Positions 36,220-55,091 are shown, numbered from the stretch's first letter. The stretch: 64,000 bases of DNA from Pseudomonadota bacterium (GCA_021778035.1 JAJYCY010000008.1:612-64611); one strand, 5' to 3'. Numbers and translations are program-made. The notes: generated by a model from the letters alone, not told the origin.

Positions 36220-37215
36220 ATGCCGATCATCGAACAGGATTCATGGCGTACGCAGTACTTCGAGGGAGTCGACTGTCCGGACGACATCGTCATTCCGACC
36301 GATGACGAATATGCCTACCGGCTGTATCCGCACTTCCGCTGGATCTACAACAAGCTGCTCATCTGCGAGACGCAGAACCTGGAGCACGCGCCGCACGGGG
36401 TCGCTCCGCAGCGGTTTCCGGTATTCAGCAAGCCAGTGTACAACCTGCGTGGAATGGGCGTGGGCAGCCGCGTCATCGCCTCGCGCGAGGAATACGAACA
36501 CGTGCAGCAGCCTGGGCACATGTGGATGCCGTTGCTTGATGGCGAGCATGTAAGCAGCGACGTCGCACTCGTTGACGGCGAGCCGGTGTGGTGGCGCCAC
36601 GTGCTGGGGCAGGCGCTTGGCGATGGCGTGTTCGATTACTGGACTGTCCTTGCCGAACGCCGCCCCGGCATCGAGCTATACTGCGGCAACTGGCTGCGCC
36701 GTCACCTCCCAGGGTACAGCGGATGCGTCAATCTCGAGACCATCGGTGGAACGATCATCGAGGCCCACCTGCGGTTTGCTGACCAGTGGCCTGACCTCTA
36801 CGGCAACGGCTGGATCGAAGCGGTGGTCAGTCTGTACGCGCAGGGCGTTTGGAGTTTTGCCGGGCGCGGCTGCCGGACCGGCTACAGCGTAGTCCTGTCC
36901 GGACCGCCCGGCCTGACGCTTCCGCGGTTCGACCGCGGTGCGGTGCCTGGACTGCTTGCCGGTCCGGAAATCTCGAGTATCCAGATAACGTTTGATGAAG
37001 GCCGTCTGGCAGCCGGTCATGCCATGCCTCCCGGAGGTCCGCGGCTGGCGGTCGTGAACTGTTGGGATCTCGGCGCGGGCTTTGCCGTCCGTGAGCGGCT
37101 TGCCGAGATGATGGCCCTTCCGCCTTCGACCAGGAAAGGTACGCCGCTGTGCGCGCCTGGTGCGGATGCGGATCGTGGCCGTGTTCCTGGGTCCGCCGTA
37201 TCAGGGAGGGACTGA
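36220..37215 (+). CDS. Conserved hypothetical protein, possible ATP-grasp fold
   Basis: 331-aa ORF with GC3-rich codons and a GAGG SD 8 nt upstream. Segments FPVFSKPVYNLRGMGVGSRVI, GHMWMPLLDGEHVSSD and VNLETIGGTIIEAHLRF resemble ATP-grasp lysine/Gly-rich/Mg-site elements. The stop at 37213-37215 abuts the next gene's ATG at 37217. Confidence 0.55.
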   Translation: MPIIEQDSWRTQYFEGVDCPDDIVIPTDDEYAYRLYPHFRWIYNKLLICETQNLEHAPHGVAPQRFPVFSKPVYNLRGMGVGSRVIASREEYEHVQQPGHMWMPLLDGEHVSSDVALVDGEPVWWRHVLGQALGDGVFDYWTVLAERRPGIELYCGNWLRRHLPGYSGCVNLETIGGTIIEAHLRFADQWPDLYGNGWIEAVVSLYAQGVWSFAGRGCRTGYSVVLSGPPGLTLPRFDRGAVPGLLAGPEISSIQITFDEGRLAAGHAMPPGGPRLAVVNCWDLGAGFAVRERLAEMMALPPSTRKGTPLCAPGADADRGRVPGSAVSGRD

Positions 37216-39176: not shown

Positions 39177-39593
39177 ATGCAGAACGGTGATCCGGACTGC
39201 GTCGGACCGCTGCTGCGGCTCGGGTCGGTGGCAGTCGATGGCAATTATCTGTGTGATATCGGACCGACCGGGCTCGTGTTTGCCGCCCGGTCTCCGCTCG
39301 AGCCTGGTACCGCCATTTTGCTGCGTGTTCCGGATGTCCGGCCCGCTCTCGAGATCACTGGCCGGGTGCTCTGGTGCAGGCCGGACGGAAACCGTCATGT
39401 TGTGCGGGCCGGATTTGTGCGCAGACTTGATCCTTTCCGGGTACGGATGATCTGGCAGGTGTACTGCATTGAACGTTATCGGGAGTCAATGCGCGAACGT
39501 GAAGGGCGCGACCTGACCCGCGAGCAGGCTGCTGGCGAGTGGATCAGCCTGTACGCCAGCGGTTTCCGGAAAATCGAGGATTTTCCGGGCTGA
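39177..39593 (+). CDS. Small PilZ-like beta-barrel domain protein (tentative)
   Basis: 138 aa. DIGPTGLVFAARSPLEPGTAILLRV...EITGRVLWCR resembles the PilZ DxSxxG/beta-barrel core, but no RxxxR motif is visible. The helical C-terminus is ...LTREQAAGEWISLYASGF. Confidence 0.45.
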   Translation: MQNGDPDCVGPLLRLGSVAVDGNYLCDIGPTGLVFAARSPLEPGTAILLRVPDVRPALEITGRVLWCRPDGNRHVVRAGFVRRLDPFRVRMIWQVYCIERYRESMREREGRDLTREQAAGEWISLYASGFRKIEDFPG

Positions 39594-39719: not shown

Positions 39720-39748
39720 TTGCCCCGGATCGGCACTGATTCTATACT
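39720..39748 (+). promoter_or_regulatory. Predicted sigma70-type promoter for the AAA+/VWA/orphan operon
   Basis: TTGCCC (39720-39725), a 17-nt spacer, then TATACT (39743-39748), about 60 nt upstream of ATG 39810. Confidence 0.4.
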
Positions 39749-39809
39749 GGACCAGTTTCGTAGGCCCGGCGGCATCTCGCGGGCACAGTCATGGAATCAC
39801 GGGGTAGGC

Positions 39810-40856
39810 ATGCGTCCTTTGCACTTGTTTTCCATTCTGGACCGGGAATTTACCAGCACGCGGGAAGGTCACCATACACCAGTAATGCTATGGGGTCCTC
39901 CAGGTGTCGGAAAATCCCAGATCGTTGCGCAGGTTGCCCAGCGCCACCGCATTCCGGTGGTCGATATCCGGCTATCGCAGATGGAGCCAACCGATCTGCG
40001 CGGCATACCGTTCCGGGTCAATGATCTGGTTGAGTGGGCGGTGCCCGCGATGCTGCCGGACGCCACGCGCCATGGCAGTGCGGGCATCCTGTTTCTCGAC
40101 GAGATCACGTCAGCTGCGCCGACTGTTTCGGCAGCCGCATACCAGCTTATTCTCGACAGGCGCCTCGGCGCCTACCGGGTTCCCGACGGCTGGGCGATAT
40201 TCGCGGCCGGCAATCGCCAGGGAGACCGGGGCGTCACTTACAGCATGCCGGCGCCGCTTGCGAACCGCTTCTCGCATTTCGAAGTGGAGTCGCATCTGGA
40301 CGACTGGGTGACGTGGGCTTACGCCAGCGGAATCGATGAACGCGTGATTGCGTTCCTGCGGTTCCGGCCGGAGCTGTTGTTCGATTTCGACCCGGCTCAT
40401 AACCCGGTTGCATTTCCGAGCCCCCGTTCCTGGGAGTTTGCGCACCGTGCATTGCACAAGTTCGGGGACCGGCCGGAGCTGCTGCGCGGCGCGCTGCAGG
40501 CATGCATTGGTCCGGCAGCGGCCATCGAGCTTCAGGCGTTCATCGACAACCTGGATAATCTGCCTGACATCGATGCCATCATCGGCGGGGAAACCGTTCA
40601 GGTACCGCGCGAGACGGATCTCCAGTATGCAGTCGCCAGCGCTCTCGTTGGCCGGGCACTGCGTGTCCGCAACAGCGCCGACGAGAGCCGGGTCTACGGC
40701 CACATCCTCGACTACGCATCGCGCTTTCCACAGCGTGAAATGGGCGTGATGCTCGTGTCGGACATGCAGCGGGCGGTGGGACGCAAACTGTTTGCGCTGC
40801 CGCAGTTCGGCAGCTGGGCGAAGCAGATCGCGGATGTCATGCTGTTTGACATGTGA
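39810..40856 (+). CDS. MoxR/CobS-like AAA+ ATPase
   Basis: Trimmed to ATG 39810. Walker A GPPGVGKS (39894-39917). Walker B ILFLDEIT. Also AAGNRQGDRG and PLANRF. About 348 aa. Confidence 0.85.
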   Translation: MRPLHLFSILDREFTSTREGHHTPVMLWGPPGVGKSQIVAQVAQRHRIPVVDIRLSQMEPTDLRGIPFRVNDLVEWAVPAMLPDATRHGSAGILFLDEITSAAPTVSAAAYQLILDRRLGAYRVPDGWAIFAAGNRQGDRGVTYSMPAPLANRFSHFEVESHLDDWVTWAYASGIDERVIAFLRFRPELLFDFDPAHNPVAFPSPRSWEFAHRALHKFGDRPELLRGALQACIGPAAAIELQAFIDNLDNLPDIDAIIGGETVQVPRETDLQYAVASALVGRALRVRNSADESRVYGHILDYASRFPQREMGVMLVSDMQRAVGRKLFALPQFGSWAKQIADVMLFDM

Positions 40857-42100
40857 CTGCGATGCCGGCGGCAAATGACATTGAAACCAAGCTGGCTGCG
40901 GCGCGTGCGCGGCTTATCCTCGACAAGCCATTTCTCGGGGCGCTGGTACTGCGCCTGCCGGTCATTGCTGCTGATTCGGGGTGGTGCAGGACCACGGCGA
41001 CTGATGCCCGGGCCTTCTATTACAACAGCGAATATATCCGCGCCCTGAGCCTGGAGCAGACCCAGTTCGTGCTTGCGCACGAAGCGCTGCACTGTGCCCT
41101 TTCCCATTTCGTGCGCCGGCAGCACCGGGTAAAGCACCGCTGGGATCTTGCCTGTGACTACGCCGTGAATCCGCTGCTTGTGAAAGACGGTCTGACGCCA
41201 CCGCCCGGCGCCATGTCGTTTGACTGTTACGAAGGGATGACGGCCGAAGAGATCTATCCCTGCATTGAGGGAAATGATGAACAGGAGCCGATCGACCAGC
41301 ATATCTATGATGAGCCCGACAGTCGCGGCGATGGCAGATCCGCCGACGGACGCGCGGATCAGGGAGAAGGGAGCAGCCGGTCCGGTGACGCTCCGACTGA
41401 CGGCGGCAGCGCAAGCGAGTCCGGGGCCGGCAGCGACGGGGCTTCGATGCCCGAGCCCCTGAGCGAGGCGGAACGCGAAAAGATGGGTGTGCAGTGGCGC
41501 CAGCGTCTGGCCGGTGCTGCACAGCAGGCGATGCAGGCCGGAAAACTCACCGCATCGATGGCGCGCGTTGTTGACCACCTGCTTCAGCCGCAGCTTCCCT
41601 GGCGCATGATGCTCGCAAGGTACATGACCGCCACGGCCCGGGATGACTACAGCTTCACCAGGCCGTCGCGGCGGGAGGGGGCGGCAATCCTTCCGAGCCT
41701 GCGCAGCACCCAGATCGAACTCGCGGTCGTGCTCGATACCAGCGGATCGATCAGCGACAGCGAGATGCGCGAATTTCTGGCGGAGGTCAATTCGATAAAG
41801 GGGCAGATGCGCGCGCGAGTCGCGCTGCTCGCCTGCGACGACGCGCTCAATCCGCAATGCCCGTGGCGCTACGAGCCGTGGGAGGAGCTGGTATTGCCGC
41901 AGTCTCTGGAGGGTGGTGGCGGAACAAGCTTCGTCCCGCCTTTTGACTGGCTGAAGCTGCAGGATCGCCAGCCGGACCTGGTTCTCTATTTTACCGATGC
42001 CGAGGGAAAGTTTCCTGGCGAGATGCCGGTGTTTCCGGTGATCTGGCTGGTCAAGGGGAAAGCCCCGGTACCCTGGGGACAGAGGATCCAGCTCAACTAG
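40853..42100 (+). CDS. VWA-domain protein with N-terminal HExxH metallopeptidase-like domain (DUF2201-like)
   Basis: The GTG at 40853 overlaps the upstream stop (ATGTGA); an alternative ATG lies at 40862. HEALH at 41078-41092. Acidic D/G/S-rich linker (DEPDSRGDGRSADGRADQGEGSSRSGDAPTDGGSASESGAGSDG). MIDAS DTSGS at 41735-41749. Confidence 0.8.
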   Translation: MTAMPAANDIETKLAAARARLILDKPFLGALVLRLPVIAADSGWCRTTATDARAFYYNSEYIRALSLEQTQFVLAHEALHCALSHFVRRQHRVKHRWDLACDYAVNPLLVKDGLTPPPGAMSFDCYEGMTAEEIYPCIEGNDEQEPIDQHIYDEPDSRGDGRSADGRADQGEGSSRSGDAPTDGGSASESGAGSDGASMPEPLSEAEREKMGVQWRQRLAGAAQQAMQAGKLTASMARVVDHLLQPQLPWRMMLARYMTATARDDYSFTRPSRREGAAILPSLRSTQIELAVVLDTSGSISDSEMREFLAEVNSIKGQMRARVALLACDDALNPQCPWRYEPWEELVLPQSLEGGGGTSFVPPFDWLKLQDRQPDLVLYFTDAEGKFPGEMPVFPVIWLVKGKAPVPWGQRIQLN

Positions 42101-42138
42101 GAGTTCCGGCGGGTCGGTCTGCACCGCCGGGCAACGTC

Positions 42139-43266
42139 ATGCAACTGAGTGATGAAGACCACCTGCGCCTGAGTGTACTGCTCGCCAACCCGATCGAAGC
42201 AATCCGCGTTGACGAGCAGAACATGACCGTATACGGGCTTTATGGCCAGCAGGAAGCGAAGGTCAGGCTGAACCCGACGGGGCGCCCCGAGCAGTACCTG
42301 CGCTGCGTGCGCGAGCTGCTGTCCGGACATGCGCTTGGATCGCCGGGCGGTTACCCGGCGTTCCTGCAGCGCTGGACACGGATGGGCCAGGCCCGGGACG
42401 CGCGGCTGGCAGAACTTCTCATGCTGGGAGAACCGGAGGCGGTGGTGGCCGTTGCCGCTGCCAGCGGTCTGACCGATGAACTTGCCCGCCGCGCCTGGTG
42501 GGTTCTGCCTACCCCGGAAATTGCCCGCTGCATGCTGGCGCGCGAATGCGTGGTGCAGGGTGCCATGGGAAAGGTGCTCGCCGAGTATCTGGTGGAATAT
42601 CTGCCATTCGAGACCGAGCCATCGGCGATCGTTGCAACGGTGCGTCTGGTGCTGCAGCCCGGCCTGGTTGACGATGTGACGCGACGCAGGATCTGGGCGA
42701 GGGGTCATGGCAAGAACGTCTATTACCTCGGTTTCCTGGAAGCCACTCCCGATGTGCTTCCCGAACAGGCGCCAGCGCGTGGCGACATCGGACAGATACG
42801 GGAAATGCTGGATCCGCTGGCACAGGACGGCAATCCGTACGCATTGCATCTGCTGCGGGTGTTCAGTCAGCCCGGACAGAGTTTCATGGTTGTCTCGGAA
42901 CGCATCCTGCGCAGGCCTGCCAGCCAGGAAGCCGCGATCGCTGTCATGAACGTCATCGGCAGCTACTTCAGGGATTCGCAGCAGATCGATGAGCTGCCGC
43001 GCGAGATGGCCGTGGCCATCGACCGTGCACAGATGCAATACCGGCATGCGGCCGGCGGGCCGCTCGCGGAACTTGTGGTGGCGGCGCCGGCACTCGAACG
43101 GGAAATCATCGCGCTGCTGGTACTGTCGCAGGTGAGCGAAACCCTGCTGAATCCGATATTTTCGCACACTACCGCGGTCGGTTCCGTCATGGCTAAAAAG
43201 CTGCAGCCGGTAGTTGGCCCCATTCTCGATCAGTACGCGGTCCTGTGCGCGAGCTCCGGGGCCTAG
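42139..43266 (+). CDS. Hypothetical 375-aa soluble, predicted all-alpha protein (orphan; third gene of the AAA+/VWA operon)
   Basis: Uninterrupted ORF with GC3-rich codons, on the same strand 38 nt after the VWA gene. No TM segment, signal peptide or catalytic motif recognised (MQLSDEDHLRLSVLLANPIEAIRVDEQNMTVYGLYG...). Confidence 0.6.
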   Translation: MQLSDEDHLRLSVLLANPIEAIRVDEQNMTVYGLYGQQEAKVRLNPTGRPEQYLRCVRELLSGHALGSPGGYPAFLQRWTRMGQARDARLAELLMLGEPEAVVAVAAASGLTDELARRAWWVLPTPEIARCMLARECVVQGAMGKVLAEYLVEYLPFETEPSAIVATVRLVLQPGLVDDVTRRRIWARGHGKNVYYLGFLEATPDVLPEQAPARGDIGQIREMLDPLAQDGNPYALHLLRVFSQPGQSFMVVSERILRRPASQEAAIAVMNVIGSYFRDSQQIDELPREMAVAIDRAQMQYRHAAGGPLAELVVAAPALEREIIALLVLSQVSETLLNPIFSHTTAVGSVMAKKLQPVVGPILDQYAVLCASSGA

Positions 43267-43268
43267 GC

Positions 43269-44162
43269 CTAGCTGCCGCTTTCTTTGCCTGGGCTGGCCA
43301 GGCAGGCGGCCAGACCCGTCCGCAGGTCCGGATATAGCAGTTGCACACCCAGTTCCTCGATCATCCTGCGGTTGCTGATGCGCCGGGACTCATCGATATA
43401 GGAAAGCAGATCGGCGCTGAGAAAGCGCCCGGCCTCGCTGCGGTTCACCACCGGGGGACGCTGCAGACCCAGGCAGTCCGCCACGCTGTTGAAGTATTCC
43501 GTCATGGTCCCTGGCCTTCCGTCGCTCGCATTATATATGGTATCCGCCTGTCCACGCTCGCCTGCTGCCACGCAGGCGCGGGCCAGATCGTCGGCATGGA
43601 TGCGGTTTGAAAAGCCGCACTCGGATTCCCGCACCACCGGACGGCGTGCGCGGACGGCATCGAGCGGAAGACGTCCCGGTCCGTATATGCCGGGAACGCG
43701 CAGGATGATGACTGCAACACCATACCTCCTGCCCCATGCACGCAGCGCGTTTTCTGCATCCAGCCGTCGCCGGCCCCTGGGGGTCTTCGGGTCAACCGCG
43801 GCGTGCTCGTCGACCCAGGCTCCGTGGCAGTCACCGTAGACGCCCGTGGTGCTGAGATACACAGTCGTCCCGGGAGCCGGTTTTCGCGATAAAGCATCCA
43901 GGAAGGCGTGCATGCGGGGATCGGTCTGCCCTGCCGGGGGAGGCGGGGCAAGGTAGTAGACCAGCTGGCCGGCAACATCCAGACCGGCCAGAGACTCTGG
44001 CTGGTCCAGATCGCCGGATACCGGCTCGATGCCCGCCGCCCGCAGACGCGCTGCGGCTGCGGCGCTCCGTGCCAGCGCGGTCACCGTTAACCCCCGGGCC
44101 TGCCACAGCGCGGCAACCCGCAGACCGATGTCTCCGCACCCGATGACTGTCACGCCGTTCAT
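43269..44162 (-). CDS. NAD(P)-dependent epimerase/dehydratase-family (SDR) oxidoreductase
   Basis: N-terminal Rossmann motif VTVIGCGDIGLRVA. 297 aa. Convergent with the orphan gene, with stops 2 nt apart. Confidence 0.8.
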   Translation of the reverse strand: MNGVTVIGCGDIGLRVAALWQARGLTVTALARSAAAAARLRAAGIEPVSGDLDQPESLAGLDVAGQLVYYLAPPPPAGQTDPRMHAFLDALSRKPAPGTTVYLSTTGVYGDCHGAWVDEHAAVDPKTPRGRRRLDAENALRAWGRRYGVAVIILRVPGIYGPGRLPLDAVRARRPVVRESECGFSNRIHADDLARACVAAGERGQADTIYNASDGRPGTMTEYFNSVADCLGLQRPPVVNRSEAGRFLSADLLSYIDESRRISNRRMIEELGVQLLYPDLRTGLAACLASPGKESGS

Positions 44163-53825: not shown

Positions 53826-53884
53826 CGCATCGGCCCGGAACGGGTTGCGCCGGAATCGGGCGCAGACCCCATAGCTGGCCGACC

Positions 53885-53898
53885 GGTGGGCGGAATCA
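53885..53898 (+). promoter_or_regulatory. 14-nt motif GGTGGGCGGAATCA upstream of the XRE gene (copy 1 of 2)
   Basis: 12/14 identical to GGCGGGCGGATTCA, read on the minus strand at 54921-54908 upstream of the small acidic ORF. The orientation relative to each downstream gene is the same. Confidence 0.3.
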
Positions 53899-53970
53899 CC
53901 TCAGCAAGGGTGCAATCCGTTCCATATGCTGTGTCGACGGACTCCCGGGTTCCCCGATACAGTGTCCTGC

Positions 53971-54240
53971 ATGGAACGAGGGACCAGGAAACTGCTGGCC
54001 AGGCGAGTTCGCCTGCTGCGTGTCGGACGCGGCTGGTCGCAGGAGGCGCTGGCCGCAGCGAGCGGTCTGCACCGCAATTATATCGGCCACGTCGAGCGTT
54101 CGGAACTGAACGTGGGTCTTGATAATCTTGAAAAAATCGCTTTGGCGCTGGGCGTGTCGCTGTGCACGCTACTTGAGCCCGACGAGGCCAGTCTCGGTGA
54201 TTTTATGGCGGATGCGGGGGGAGAGGGGCATGGCCAGTAA
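53971..54240 (+). CDS. XRE-family helix-turn-helix transcriptional regulator
   Basis: Trimmed to ATG 53971. HTH_3-type sequence LLARRVRLLRVGRGWSQEALAAASGLHRNYIGHVERSELNVGLDNLEKIALALGVSLCTLL. Confidence 0.8.
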   Translation: MERGTRKLLARRVRLLRVGRGWSQEALAAASGLHRNYIGHVERSELNVGLDNLEKIALALGVSLCTLLEPDEASLGDFMADAGGEGHGQ

Positions 54241-54252
54241 GGGAGCAGCGTA

Positions 54253-54462
54253 GTGCTGATTCTTTCCCGCCGGCCGGGGGAGGCCGTGCATATCCTGCCC
54301 GGGCCCCGTTTAAGTCCGGACATGCCGGTCAGTGTGCTATTCGGACCCGTGCCGATAGAAATCATCGTGACCCGGGTGCTCGGGAAGGAAGTCCGCCTGG
54401 GAATCAGCGCCCATCCGGAGCTGGTTGTGCTGCGGCGTGAGCTGGTGCGGTCCGGAACGTAA
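54253..54462 (+). CDS. CsrA/RsmA-family RNA-binding protein with ~18-20-aa Pro-rich internal insertion
   Basis: GTG start 12 nt after the XRE stop, with SD AAGGGAG 7 nt upstream. MLILSRRPGEAVHI ... IEIIVTRVLGKEVRLGISAHPELVVLRRELV aligns by eye with E. coli CsrA MLILTRRVGETLMI / [31 protein letters not shown]. Confidence 0.75.
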   Translation: MLILSRRPGEAVHILPGPRLSPDMPVSVLFGPVPIEIIVTRVLGKEVRLGISAHPELVVLRRELVRSGT

Positions 54463-54561
54463 TGTGGCGGCGCATCCGGCTTCTCTGGCCGGGCTGAAGC
54501 CTGACCCTGTCCGCAAGCGTGGCCCGGACACGCCCAGCCTCCTGTCTGGTTGACGTTGATG

Positions 54562-54610
54562 TGCGGCGCCGGGACCAGGTTCCTGGGTGGTTACTCCCGA
54601 CGCCGCATTT
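54562..54610 (+). terminator. Long GC-rich hairpin between the convergent CsrA-like and small-ORF genes (possible intrinsic terminator)
   Basis: TGCGGCGCCGGG (54562-54573) pairs with CCCGACGCCGCA (54596-54607) in 11 of 12 positions. The loop holds an inner palindrome CCAGGTTCCTGG. The hairpin is followed by TTTGTG on the plus strand. Confidence 0.4.
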
Positions 54611-54649
54611 GTGACACCTTGAATTTCCTGTGCCGGTGCGGACCGGCAG

Positions 54650-54877
54650 CTACTGGAGCAGTCTGGTGGTGGCTGGCTGCACCTGTTCCAGGGTCATCTT
54701 GGCGAGCTGTTCCAGCGTAGCCGTATCGGGGATTTCCTGGATATTGGTGAACCAGACATTTTCAACGTGGCAGTCATCATCATCCGATTCCGCGATGACC
54801 AGAGGGCGCCCGATGAAGACGCCCCGTTGTCCGTTTTCCAGATCGATGATGACCATCTGCAGCGGCAACATTTTCAT
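54650..54877 (-). CDS. Small acidic hypothetical protein (75 aa)
   Basis: Strong SD GGAGG 7 nt upstream of ATG 54877. Translation: MKMLPLQMVIIDLENGQRGVFIGRPLVIAESDDDDCHVENVWFTNIQEIPDTATLEQLAKMTLEQVQPATTRLLQ. Codons are visibly more A/T-rich than in neighbouring genes. Confidence 0.6.
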   Translation of the reverse strand: MKMLPLQMVIIDLENGQRGVFIGRPLVIAESDDDDCHVENVWFTNIQEIPDTATLEQLAKMTLEQVQPATTRLLQ

Positions 54878-54907
54878 GGCACGACCTCCGGATCAGGGTG
54901 CACGTTA

Positions 54908-54921
54908 TGAATCCGCCCGCC
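54908..54921 (-). promoter_or_regulatory. 14-nt motif GGCGGGCGGATTCA upstream of the small acidic ORF (copy 2 of 2)
   Basis: Minus-strand reading of tgaatccgcccgcc (54908-54921), 31-44 nt upstream of ATG 54877. It is the partner of the site at 53885-53898. Confidence 0.3.
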
Positions 54922-55091
54922 GCGGACCGCAAGACCAATGTCCGCCGGAAAACGGTGGTCCTGAATTCAATTAAAGCACAATTTGCGCCAGTGGCCAGTG
55001 AACACTGCCAGAGCCTCTGCACACCGACGGCGTTCCACGCTATGCTCGTTCACGTGATTCCGGACAGGACACCGATGCCGAACCAGATCCT

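Follow-up and report, generated by a model that had tools for sequence, protein, structure and literature searches.

A probable dsrS orthologue behind a MoxR-class AAA+/VWA gene pair in a putative sulfur-oxidising gammaproteobacterium

The open reading frame at positions 42139-43266 of a 64,000-nucleotide stretch of DNA from a Pseudomonadota bacterium (GCA_021778035.1 JAJYCY010000008.1:612-64611; the whole stretch is called the window below) is, judged from its sequence, very probably an orthologue of the DsrS family. It follows a gene for a MoxR-class AAA+ ATPase and a gene for a VWA protein on the same strand, and the linkage of dsrS to this gene pair looks both conserved and ancestral. We lean, by a narrow margin of confidence, towards the reading that this is the dsrS of a chemolithotroph and the third gene of an AAA+/VWA unit, and that its product acts as the client-specific partner in a remodelling machine. 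On its own the gene is an unremarkable orthologue in a known family; its value lies in the neighbourhood pattern. The unit and its 3' neighbour are as follows.

39720-40856, plus strand: MoxR-class AAA+ ATPase (Pfam AAA_5, 8.5e-11)
40853-42100, plus strand: VWA partner, with a DUF2201_N putative metallopeptidase domain (PF13203, 2.7e-48) and a VWA-like DUF2201 domain (PF09967, 5.1e-24)
42139-43266, plus strand: dsrS orthologue, 375 codons from ATG to TAG; predicted product of 41.2 kDa, soluble and built of helical repeats, plus a small beta sheet near the N terminus
43269-44162, minus strand: NAD-dependent epimerase/dehydratase (PF01370), convergent with dsrS

Results

The dsrS reading frame

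The computed product of the dsrS gene is acidic (pI 5.5) and has a mass of 41,180 Da, which agrees with the 41.1 kDa that Grimm and co-workers reportedly gave for A. vinosum DsrS in 2011. Its composition includes 12.5% Leu, 12.3% Ala, 9.3% Val, 8.0% Arg and 7.2% Glu. A motif scan of the 375-aa translation detected no P-loop, CxxC or HExxH, and the four Cys residues are dispersed, with none in the invariant or near-invariant columns of the family alignments. Neither a TM helix nor a signal peptide was found in the protein; a TM helix was discounted because the most hydrophobic stretch of 19 residues contains both Glu and Arg. In all these respects the original prediction, which was made from the sequence alone, proved accurate: it had described a genuinely coding frame of 375 aa and about 41 kDa at this position, lacking a TM helix, signal peptide, P-loop, Cys cluster or metal motif, and the frame is exact from start to stop and has conserved homologues.

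One argument behind that prediction, that GC3-rich codon use speaks for coding, had to be qualified. The G + C content at codon positions 1, 2 and 3 of the frame is 0.72, 0.44 and 0.74, respectively, and that of the window is 0.63. An antisense ORF of 356 aa (42097-43167) has the same pattern of G + C by codon position, and therefore codon bias alone cannot choose the strand. The plus strand was chosen because its translation gave 4,377 matches at E<=1e-3 (among 8,000 candidates scored), aligned from the first to the last residue. The frame is thus real by homology, but composition by itself leaves the strand undecided. The antisense ORF was rejected as a gene and is regarded as a by-product of the high G + C content.

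Extent and identity of the DsrS family

Members of the family are full-length proteins of approximately 370 aa, and when 1.84 billion cluster representatives were searched exhaustively with HMMER, 417 clusters at 50% identity were recovered. The protein had originally been called an orphan, which does not hold in view of the thousands of full-length relatives; the term applies only in that searches of Pfam, NCBIfam and the PDB sequence set gave no match. In NCBIfam no model, and no DsrS model in particular, matched even at E<=10, and the name given by PGAP therefore comes from outside that HMM library.

Three independent sources name relatives of the window protein DsrS. NCBI PGAP annotates close homologues as 'sulfur reduction protein DsrS', for example a protein from an Acidiferrobacterales MAG with 72% identity (P0008), and it gives the same name to divergent, non-core members (e.g. 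P0156 and P0146). The DsrS proteins named by the submitters of the Sulfurifustis variabilis genome (P0097; 55% identity, 98% coverage) and the Sulfuricella sp. T08 genome (55% identity over the full length) were also recovered, and members from hydrothermal-vent metagenomes carry the label 'DsrS' in UniRef. The S. variabilis gene is located at approximately 2.966 Mb of AP014936.1; in the S. variabilis genome paper, dsrS is SVA_2921 and lies outside the dsrABEFHCMKLJOPNR cluster. In Thiocapsa bogorovii a gene next to dsrR has the PGAP name 'sulfur reduction protein DsrS', and a table in the literature matches it to Alvin_1265 of A. vinosum. The link between the window protein and Alvin_1265 runs through the name shared with this T. 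bogorovii gene, and the sequence comparison is that with S. variabilis and Sulfuricella DsrS; no Chromatiaceae were present among the matches listed, which comprised the best 80 genome loci, the matches to a profile of 62 divergent members (this search settled on the core of the family) and the search from the divergent member P0161.

The resemblance to DsrS, at first suggested by size and character only, is now borne out by these names and by the 55% identity to the published SVA_2921. The original prediction had also named the findings that would speak against it, namely a lack of similarity to DsrS, a lack of correlation with sulfur genes or a hit to a different characterised family. What was found is the reverse on each point: DsrS matches, an association with dsr genes (see below) and no match to any other characterised family.

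Conservation within the family is highest in the motif LGSPGGYPxxLxRWTRMGQ (residues 66-84), in which G67, P69, G71, Y72, P73, R78, W79 and R81 are invariant; W120-W121 and F157-E158 are likewise strongly conserved. The conserved carboxylates include D7, E100 and E158.

Predicted structure of DsrS

An AlphaFold2 model based on a 100-sequence alignment reached a pLDDT of 93.2 and a pTM of 0.88. The model predicts a helix at the N terminus, a sheet of three strands at residues 21-43 and approximately 20 helices, which together would form a helical repeat or alpha-solenoid. The earlier assignment as all-alpha is therefore right for the bulk of the predicted fold, but not for the one small sheet. 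Within the chain, confidence drops only at residues 71-90 (pLDDT 66-68), a stretch that overlaps the motif of highest conservation; a loop that becomes ordered when a partner binds would fit this. Foldseek comparison of the model to the PDB and to viral models gave nothing better than E = 0.3 and a TM of about 0.3, with generic ARM/HEAT/TPR-like repeats only, and the family profile had no hit below E = 0.05 among PDB sequences. The modelled fold appears to be without a solved homologue and gives no functional pointer.

Association with sulfur oxidation

When one genome of each GTDB species was scanned, at least 570 stretches encoding DsrS relatives were found, and the taxa were read from the best 80. 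All of these best 80 of at least 570 loci come from Gamma- and Betaproteobacteria, in lineages that are known to oxidise sulfur: Sulfuricella, Sulfuricaulis, Sulfurifustaceae, Acidiferrobacterales, Thiohalomonas, Thiohalobacter, Thiogranum, Thioploca, Thiotrichaceae, Granulosicoccaceae, Ectothiorhodospiraceae and Gallionellaceae. The genes dsrA or dsrB were found within 10 kb of dsrS in at least nine of the loci fetched (L020, L041, L046, L047, L068, L071, L081, L085 and L091), and in these nine a conserved trio of TauD, Cas6-like and DsrC genes follows dsrA or dsrAB. A dsrC paralogue is present within 10 kb of dsrS in 14 loci, and genes for DsrE2, TusA and SoxYZAB lie nearby in two (L085 and L091). 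The complete genome of Ectothiorhodospiraceae bacterium 2226 (L092) has the end of its dsr operon approximately 7 kb from dsrS in convergent orientation, and the dsr genes near dsrS encode an NrfD-type DsrP, a CbiA-type DsrN and an IscA-like DsrR. The association with sulfur oxidation to which the original prediction had looked is thus present, phyletically in the lineages of the best 80 loci and physically in the nine loci with dsrA or dsrB close by.

The 64-kb window contains no dsr gene. The trio is surrounded by genes with housekeeping functions (sucAB-lpd-sucCD, glcDEF-like genes, miaB-phoH-corC-lnt, a P-type ATPase and others), and an Rfam scan and a tRNA scan of the window gave no hits. 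Genome papers place dsrS 'elsewhere in the genome' in Sulfurifustis variabilis, Sulfuricaulis limicola (SCL_0781) and Thioalkalivibrio spp.; related bacteria are thus already known to carry a dsrS that is detached from the dsr operon. The host of the window is probably a chemolithotrophic sulfur oxidiser and an Acidiferrobacterales-like gammaproteobacterium.

The AAA+/VWA pair in the window

The AAA+ protein has an intact Walker A (GPPGVGKS) and Walker B (LFLDE) motif, and its matches among PDB sequences are midasin, NorQ and CbbQ. The ORF as listed starts at a TTG (39720), but a promoter-like site at 39720-39748 makes an ATG at about 39810 (Met31) the probable true start. In the VWA partner both the HExxH motif of the N-terminal domain (HEALH) and the MIDAS motif DxSxS (DTSGS) are intact. 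With Walker A and B, MIDAS and HExxH all in place, the putative machine looks catalytically competent. The start of the VWA gene overlaps the stop of the AAA+ gene by 4 bases, and the VWA stop lies 38 bp before the dsrS start. Across the DsrS-linked loci the AAA+ proteins are 70-91% identical.

The window has the minimal form of the arrangement, which consists of AAA, VWA and dsrS alone and is preceded by a PilZ gene specific to the lineage. Conservation of the convergent epimerase gene is confined to the nearest relatives (L004-L006 and L009); it is the 3' boundary of the unit and lies outside the module.

Conservation of the gene order

The order AAA, VWA, DsrS on one strand was present in 55 of the 82 loci that had enough upstream DNA to be judged. 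The gap between AAA and VWA has a median of 5 bp and that between VWA and DsrS a median of 71.5 bp, with 26 of 58 gaps at 50 bp or less. The trio occurs in S. variabilis and in the betaproteobacterium Sulfuricella T08 although the remaining flanks are unrelated; in S. variabilis 870 bp precede dsrS, compared to 38 bp in the window. The deepest-branching members of the family (L086 and L087) also keep the trio, and the deep members include small genomes of 1.85 Mb. The linkage to a MoxR/VWA pair, which had been put forward as a possible clue to function on the basis of the window alone, is therefore a recurrent one that reaches into the deepest branches.

In approximately one third of the loci DsrS has no adjacent AAA/VWA pair, and therefore a partnership would not depend on linkage of the genes in cis. 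The loci without the pair, in the Thiohalobacter and Thiogranum clades, retain Sel1-DsrS-Grx-CysG. In a NJ tree they form derived clades beside a clade with the full string, which suggests that the pair was secondarily lost or relocated in them.

Several genomes contain a fuller string. It starts with a 2OG-Fe(II) oxygenase and a DUF6866 gene (divergent), followed by a protein of about 190 aa, a Sel1-repeat protein of about 140 aa, AAA, VWA and DsrS, and continues beyond DsrS with a protein of about 180 aa, a glutaredoxin and the siroheme synthase CysG. CysG follows DsrS, with or without the glutaredoxin, in approximately 29 loci, and CbiX is encoded near dsrS in one locus (L085). In a literature search of incomplete coverage, we found no work linking DsrS to MoxR/VWA or to the extended neighbourhood, and DUF2201 is barely mentioned; the linkage of DsrS to MoxR/VWA seems unreported so far.

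Discussion

A possible role for DsrS as third partner of a MoxR/VWA machine

Gene order, tight spacing and deep conservation together indicate that DsrS probably works with the AAA+/VWA pair. In such a machine the VWA protein would be driven by the AAA+ hexamer and would grip an acidic residue on the target with its MIDAS site, while the helical-repeat scaffold of DsrS would recruit or hold a Dsr component during remodelling. The most plausible target would be the siroheme-containing reverse sulfite reductase DsrAB, at the stage of cofactor insertion or repair. DsrAB is proposed as the likely beneficiary because genes for siroheme synthase, CbiX and glutaredoxin recur near dsrS, and because the order in A. 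vinosum is dsrN (siroheme amidase), dsrR (IscA-like) and dsrS. That DsrAB or its siroheme is the client is speculative, and we give this part of the proposal a modest chance.

The proposal of a pathway-specific adaptor, scaffold or carrier draws on analogy, since the known MoxR/VWA couples are dedicated maturases. CbbQ/CbbO reactivates Rubisco and CoxD/E/F matures CO dehydrogenase, and in the class I chelatases (BchI/BchD/BchH and CobS/CobT/CobN) the AAA+/VWA pair drives a third, tetrapyrrole-binding subunit. NorQ/NorD inserts FeB, a non-haem iron, into cNOR, for which ATP hydrolysis, the VWA domain and surface carboxylates on the target are needed (PMC9976466). By extension DsrS could be the specificity factor of a MoxR AAA+/VWA-metallopeptidase machine that matures or repairs DsrAB, e.g. 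by insertion of siroheme or siroheme amide; in this specific form the proposal is tentative and somewhat doubtful. If it is true, the string of Sel1, AAA+, VWA, DsrS, the protein of about 180 aa, glutaredoxin and CysG is an unrecognised 'Dsr maturation' gene set, and a new client is added to the few enzymes matured by MoxR/VWA couples (cNOR, Rubisco, CO dehydrogenase and the chelatases). A counter-point is that AAA + VWA is a generic module common in phages, and the pair itself is not specific for sulfur.

An unlikely alternative, though the best of those considered, is that DsrS regulates dsr expression post-transcriptionally by binding to dsr mRNA or to the translation apparatus, with the AAA+/VWA pair either regulating DsrS or simply co-located. 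We know of just one experimental hint on DsrS, and it points this way: Grimm and co-workers are said to have compared transcriptional and translational dsr fusions in A. vinosum in 2011, with results suggesting a part for DsrS in post-transcriptional control. The A. vinosum dsrS mutant reportedly oxidises stored sulfur more slowly, with the oxidation not abolished and with effects that arise after transcription. This phenotype would also suit a maturation factor that is not essential, but the data from the translational fusions fit a regulator better. The A. vinosum genome paper records a promoter of its own for dsrS, in line with regulation, and gives the function of DsrS as 'not resolved'. 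An alpha-solenoid as modelled is a fold able to bind RNA, and PUF and HAT-repeat proteins were among the Foldseek matches; none of these was significant (E>1), however, the structural matches are at noise level (TM<0.3), no RNA-binding domain was detected with Pfam or NCBIfam, and the protein is acidic. Moreover, tight ancestral coupling to an ATPase/VWA pair and to siroheme synthase would not be expected for an mRNA regulator of a distant operon.

It is rather improbable that DsrS is instead the substrate of the pair, either processed by the HExxH of the VWA protein, which is intact, or loaded with sirohydrochlorin or siroheme as a carrier to DsrAB. The class I chelatases, with their third, tetrapyrrole-binding subunit, provide an established precedent, and the neighbouring CysG, CbiX and glutaredoxin genes would suit such a carrier, yet DsrS has no similarity to CobN/BchH or any tetrapyrrole-binding family, and the family alignments contain no conserved His or Cys that could act as an axial ligand. 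The most conserved segment (66-84) coincides with the low-pLDDT loop of the model, as for a loop that becomes ordered on binding; the observations do not separate a client from an adaptor.

Finally, we regard it as highly improbable that the trio is a mobile, phage-derived or defence module unrelated to sulfur, with 'DsrS' an accident of the position of the A. vinosum gene: the AAA and VWA proteins do resemble phrog_1297 (1.7e-95) and phrog_1314 (4.2e-80), 364 phage genomes encode VWA homologues, ternary conflict systems of the MoxR-vWA kind exist (with a weak bpMoxR match of 19.7 bits here) and the flanking genes vary between genomes, but the bpMoxR score is below the cut-off of 27, DsrS has no match in PHROG, PADLOC, phage structures or a plasmid collection, no integrase or transposase adjoins the trio in the window, and DsrS is limited to sulfur oxidisers (in the best 80 of at least 570 loci) and recurs by dsrAB, dsrC, dsrPNR, tusA, dsrE2 and sox. 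A vWA-MoxR-VMAP ternary conflict or defence system was rejected for the window on the same bpMoxR score, with no significant PADLOC match for VWA or DsrS and a match for AAA at P-loop level only.

A role for DsrS as the third partner of the AAA+/VWA pair would bear on a major route of microbial sulfur oxidation, the reverse Dsr pathway. Apart from the parts of DsrN and possibly DsrR, nothing is to our knowledge established on the assembly of its siroheme/Fe-S enzyme. As far as we know, DsrS has been listed with its function 'not resolved' ever since completion of the dsr cluster in 2005. The apparently ancestral linkage to MoxR/VWA and the frequent siroheme synthase neighbour turn the vague label 'regulatory?' into a hypothesis that is genetically testable in Sulfuricella, Sulfurifustis or Thioalkalivibrio, all of which are in culture. 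No new kind of system is described here; rather, the old question of the role of DsrS is made directly testable.

Comparison with known systems

Like A. vinosum DsrS (Alvin_1265, encoded by the last gene of dsrABEFHCMKLJOPNRS), the window protein is of the 41 kDa class, soluble and without cofactor motifs. The genes differ in position: A. vinosum dsrS comes directly after dsrR, whereas the window dsrS comes after an AAA+/VWA pair and outside any dsr operon. For A. vinosum, dsrS alone was reported with the dsr operon, and no MoxR/VWA was reported. A position as last dsr gene after dsrR, absent in the window, is not family-wide either, as Sulfurifustis, Sulfuricaulis and Thioalkalivibrio show. 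S. variabilis dsrS shares with the window gene both the detached position and the order AAA_5, DUF2201, DsrS; the papers on Sulfurifustis, Sulfuricaulis and Thioalkalivibrio, in the portions available, record the detached position only and make no mention there of AAA/VWA neighbours.

The AAA_5 + DUF2201 pairs of phages and bacteria (phrog_1297 and phrog_1314) belong to the same families as the window pair and show the same pairing. In contrast, the phage VWA proteins are only 23-30% identical to the window VWA protein and have no DsrS-like partner by sequence or fold. With respect to the class I chelatases (BchI/D/H and CobS/T/N), DsrS did not resemble a CobN/BchH-like third subunit in Pfam, NCBIfam or PDB profile searches, and the AAA+ protein matches the phage 'porphyrin biosynthesis' family phrog_249 at 4e-10 only.

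The two genes upstream of dsrS are predicted to encode what defines a MoxR AAA+/VWA couple, a Walker A/B ATPase beside a MIDAS VWA protein. They have in common with NorQ/NorD and CbbQ/CbbO a MoxR-class ATPase gene that is followed by the gene for a VWA protein with an intact MIDAS, and NorQ/NorD is a gene pair dedicated to one pathway (PMC9976466). The window VWA protein, however, belongs to the DUF2201 type, in which the N-terminal domain has an HExxH motif, and not to the NorD/CbbO type, and the unit adds a third protein, DsrS.

The VWA protein encoded upstream of dsrS

The gene between those for the MoxR-class AAA+ protein (AAA) and DsrS encodes the following product:
40853-42100, + strand: DUF2201 VWA/metallopeptidase-like protein, matching the phage protein family phrog_1314 at 4e-80

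Both phrog_1314 and many phage records carry the annotation 'HNH endonuclease'. This label looks like a propagated misannotation, since the product of 40853-42100 carries an HExxH and a MIDAS motif and in Pfam matched only DUF2201_N and DUF2201 and no further family.

The distance from the VWA gene to dsrS is less than 100 bp in most loci. A minority (L001, L027, L034, L056 and L066) have a spacer of 450-870 bp without a called gene, such as that of Sulfurifustis variabilis (L001:9131-10000).

Other ORFs and gaps in the window

Three further stretches of the window are of note:
42097-43167, - strand: antisense ORF of 356 aa overlapping dsrS, GC by codon position 0.73/0.44/0.74
36220-37215, + strand: ORF of 331 aa between sucD and a quinone oxidoreductase gene, coding-like GC3 of 0.74
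53826-55091: stretch of approximately 1.3 kb following a radical-SAM gene

The codon-position GC pattern of the antisense ORF matches that of dsrS, and the ORF was rejected as a gene: it arises from the high GC content together with the third-position phase it shares with dsrS. The 331-aa ORF had no match in Pfam or NCBIfam. No ORF of at least 150 aa was present in the 1.3-kb stretch, where Rfam and tRNA scans were also without a match.

Gene context in other genomes

In nine of the fetched loci (L020, L041, L046, L047, L068, L071, L081, L085 and L091; example L091:1-3915) a conserved, divergent trio encoding a TauD-family dioxygenase, a Cas6-like protein (PF09559) and a DsrC paralogue lies immediately 5' of dsrAB. 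A Cas6-fold protein at a sulfur-oxidation locus without CRISPR context is odd.

A longer conserved string flanks dsrS in L043, L067, L070, L072, L077, L083, L087, L089 and L092 (example Ectothiorhodospiraceae bacterium 2226, L092:3070-13598). It starts with genes for a 2OG-Fe(II) oxygenase and DUF6866 (divergent), a protein of approximately 190 aa and a Sel1-repeat protein, and continues with AAA, VWA, DsrS, a protein of approximately 180 aa, glutaredoxin and the CysG siroheme synthase. None of these additional genes adjoins the AAA-VWA-DsrS trio of the window, where a different gene sits immediately 5' of the AAA gene:
39177-39593, + strand: small PilZ-domain protein, 138 aa (PF07238, 3.8e-5)

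This gene is kept at this place only in the closest relatives (L004-L007). The PilZ protein occupies the same slot as the Sel1-repeat protein of other lineages, but belongs to a separate family.
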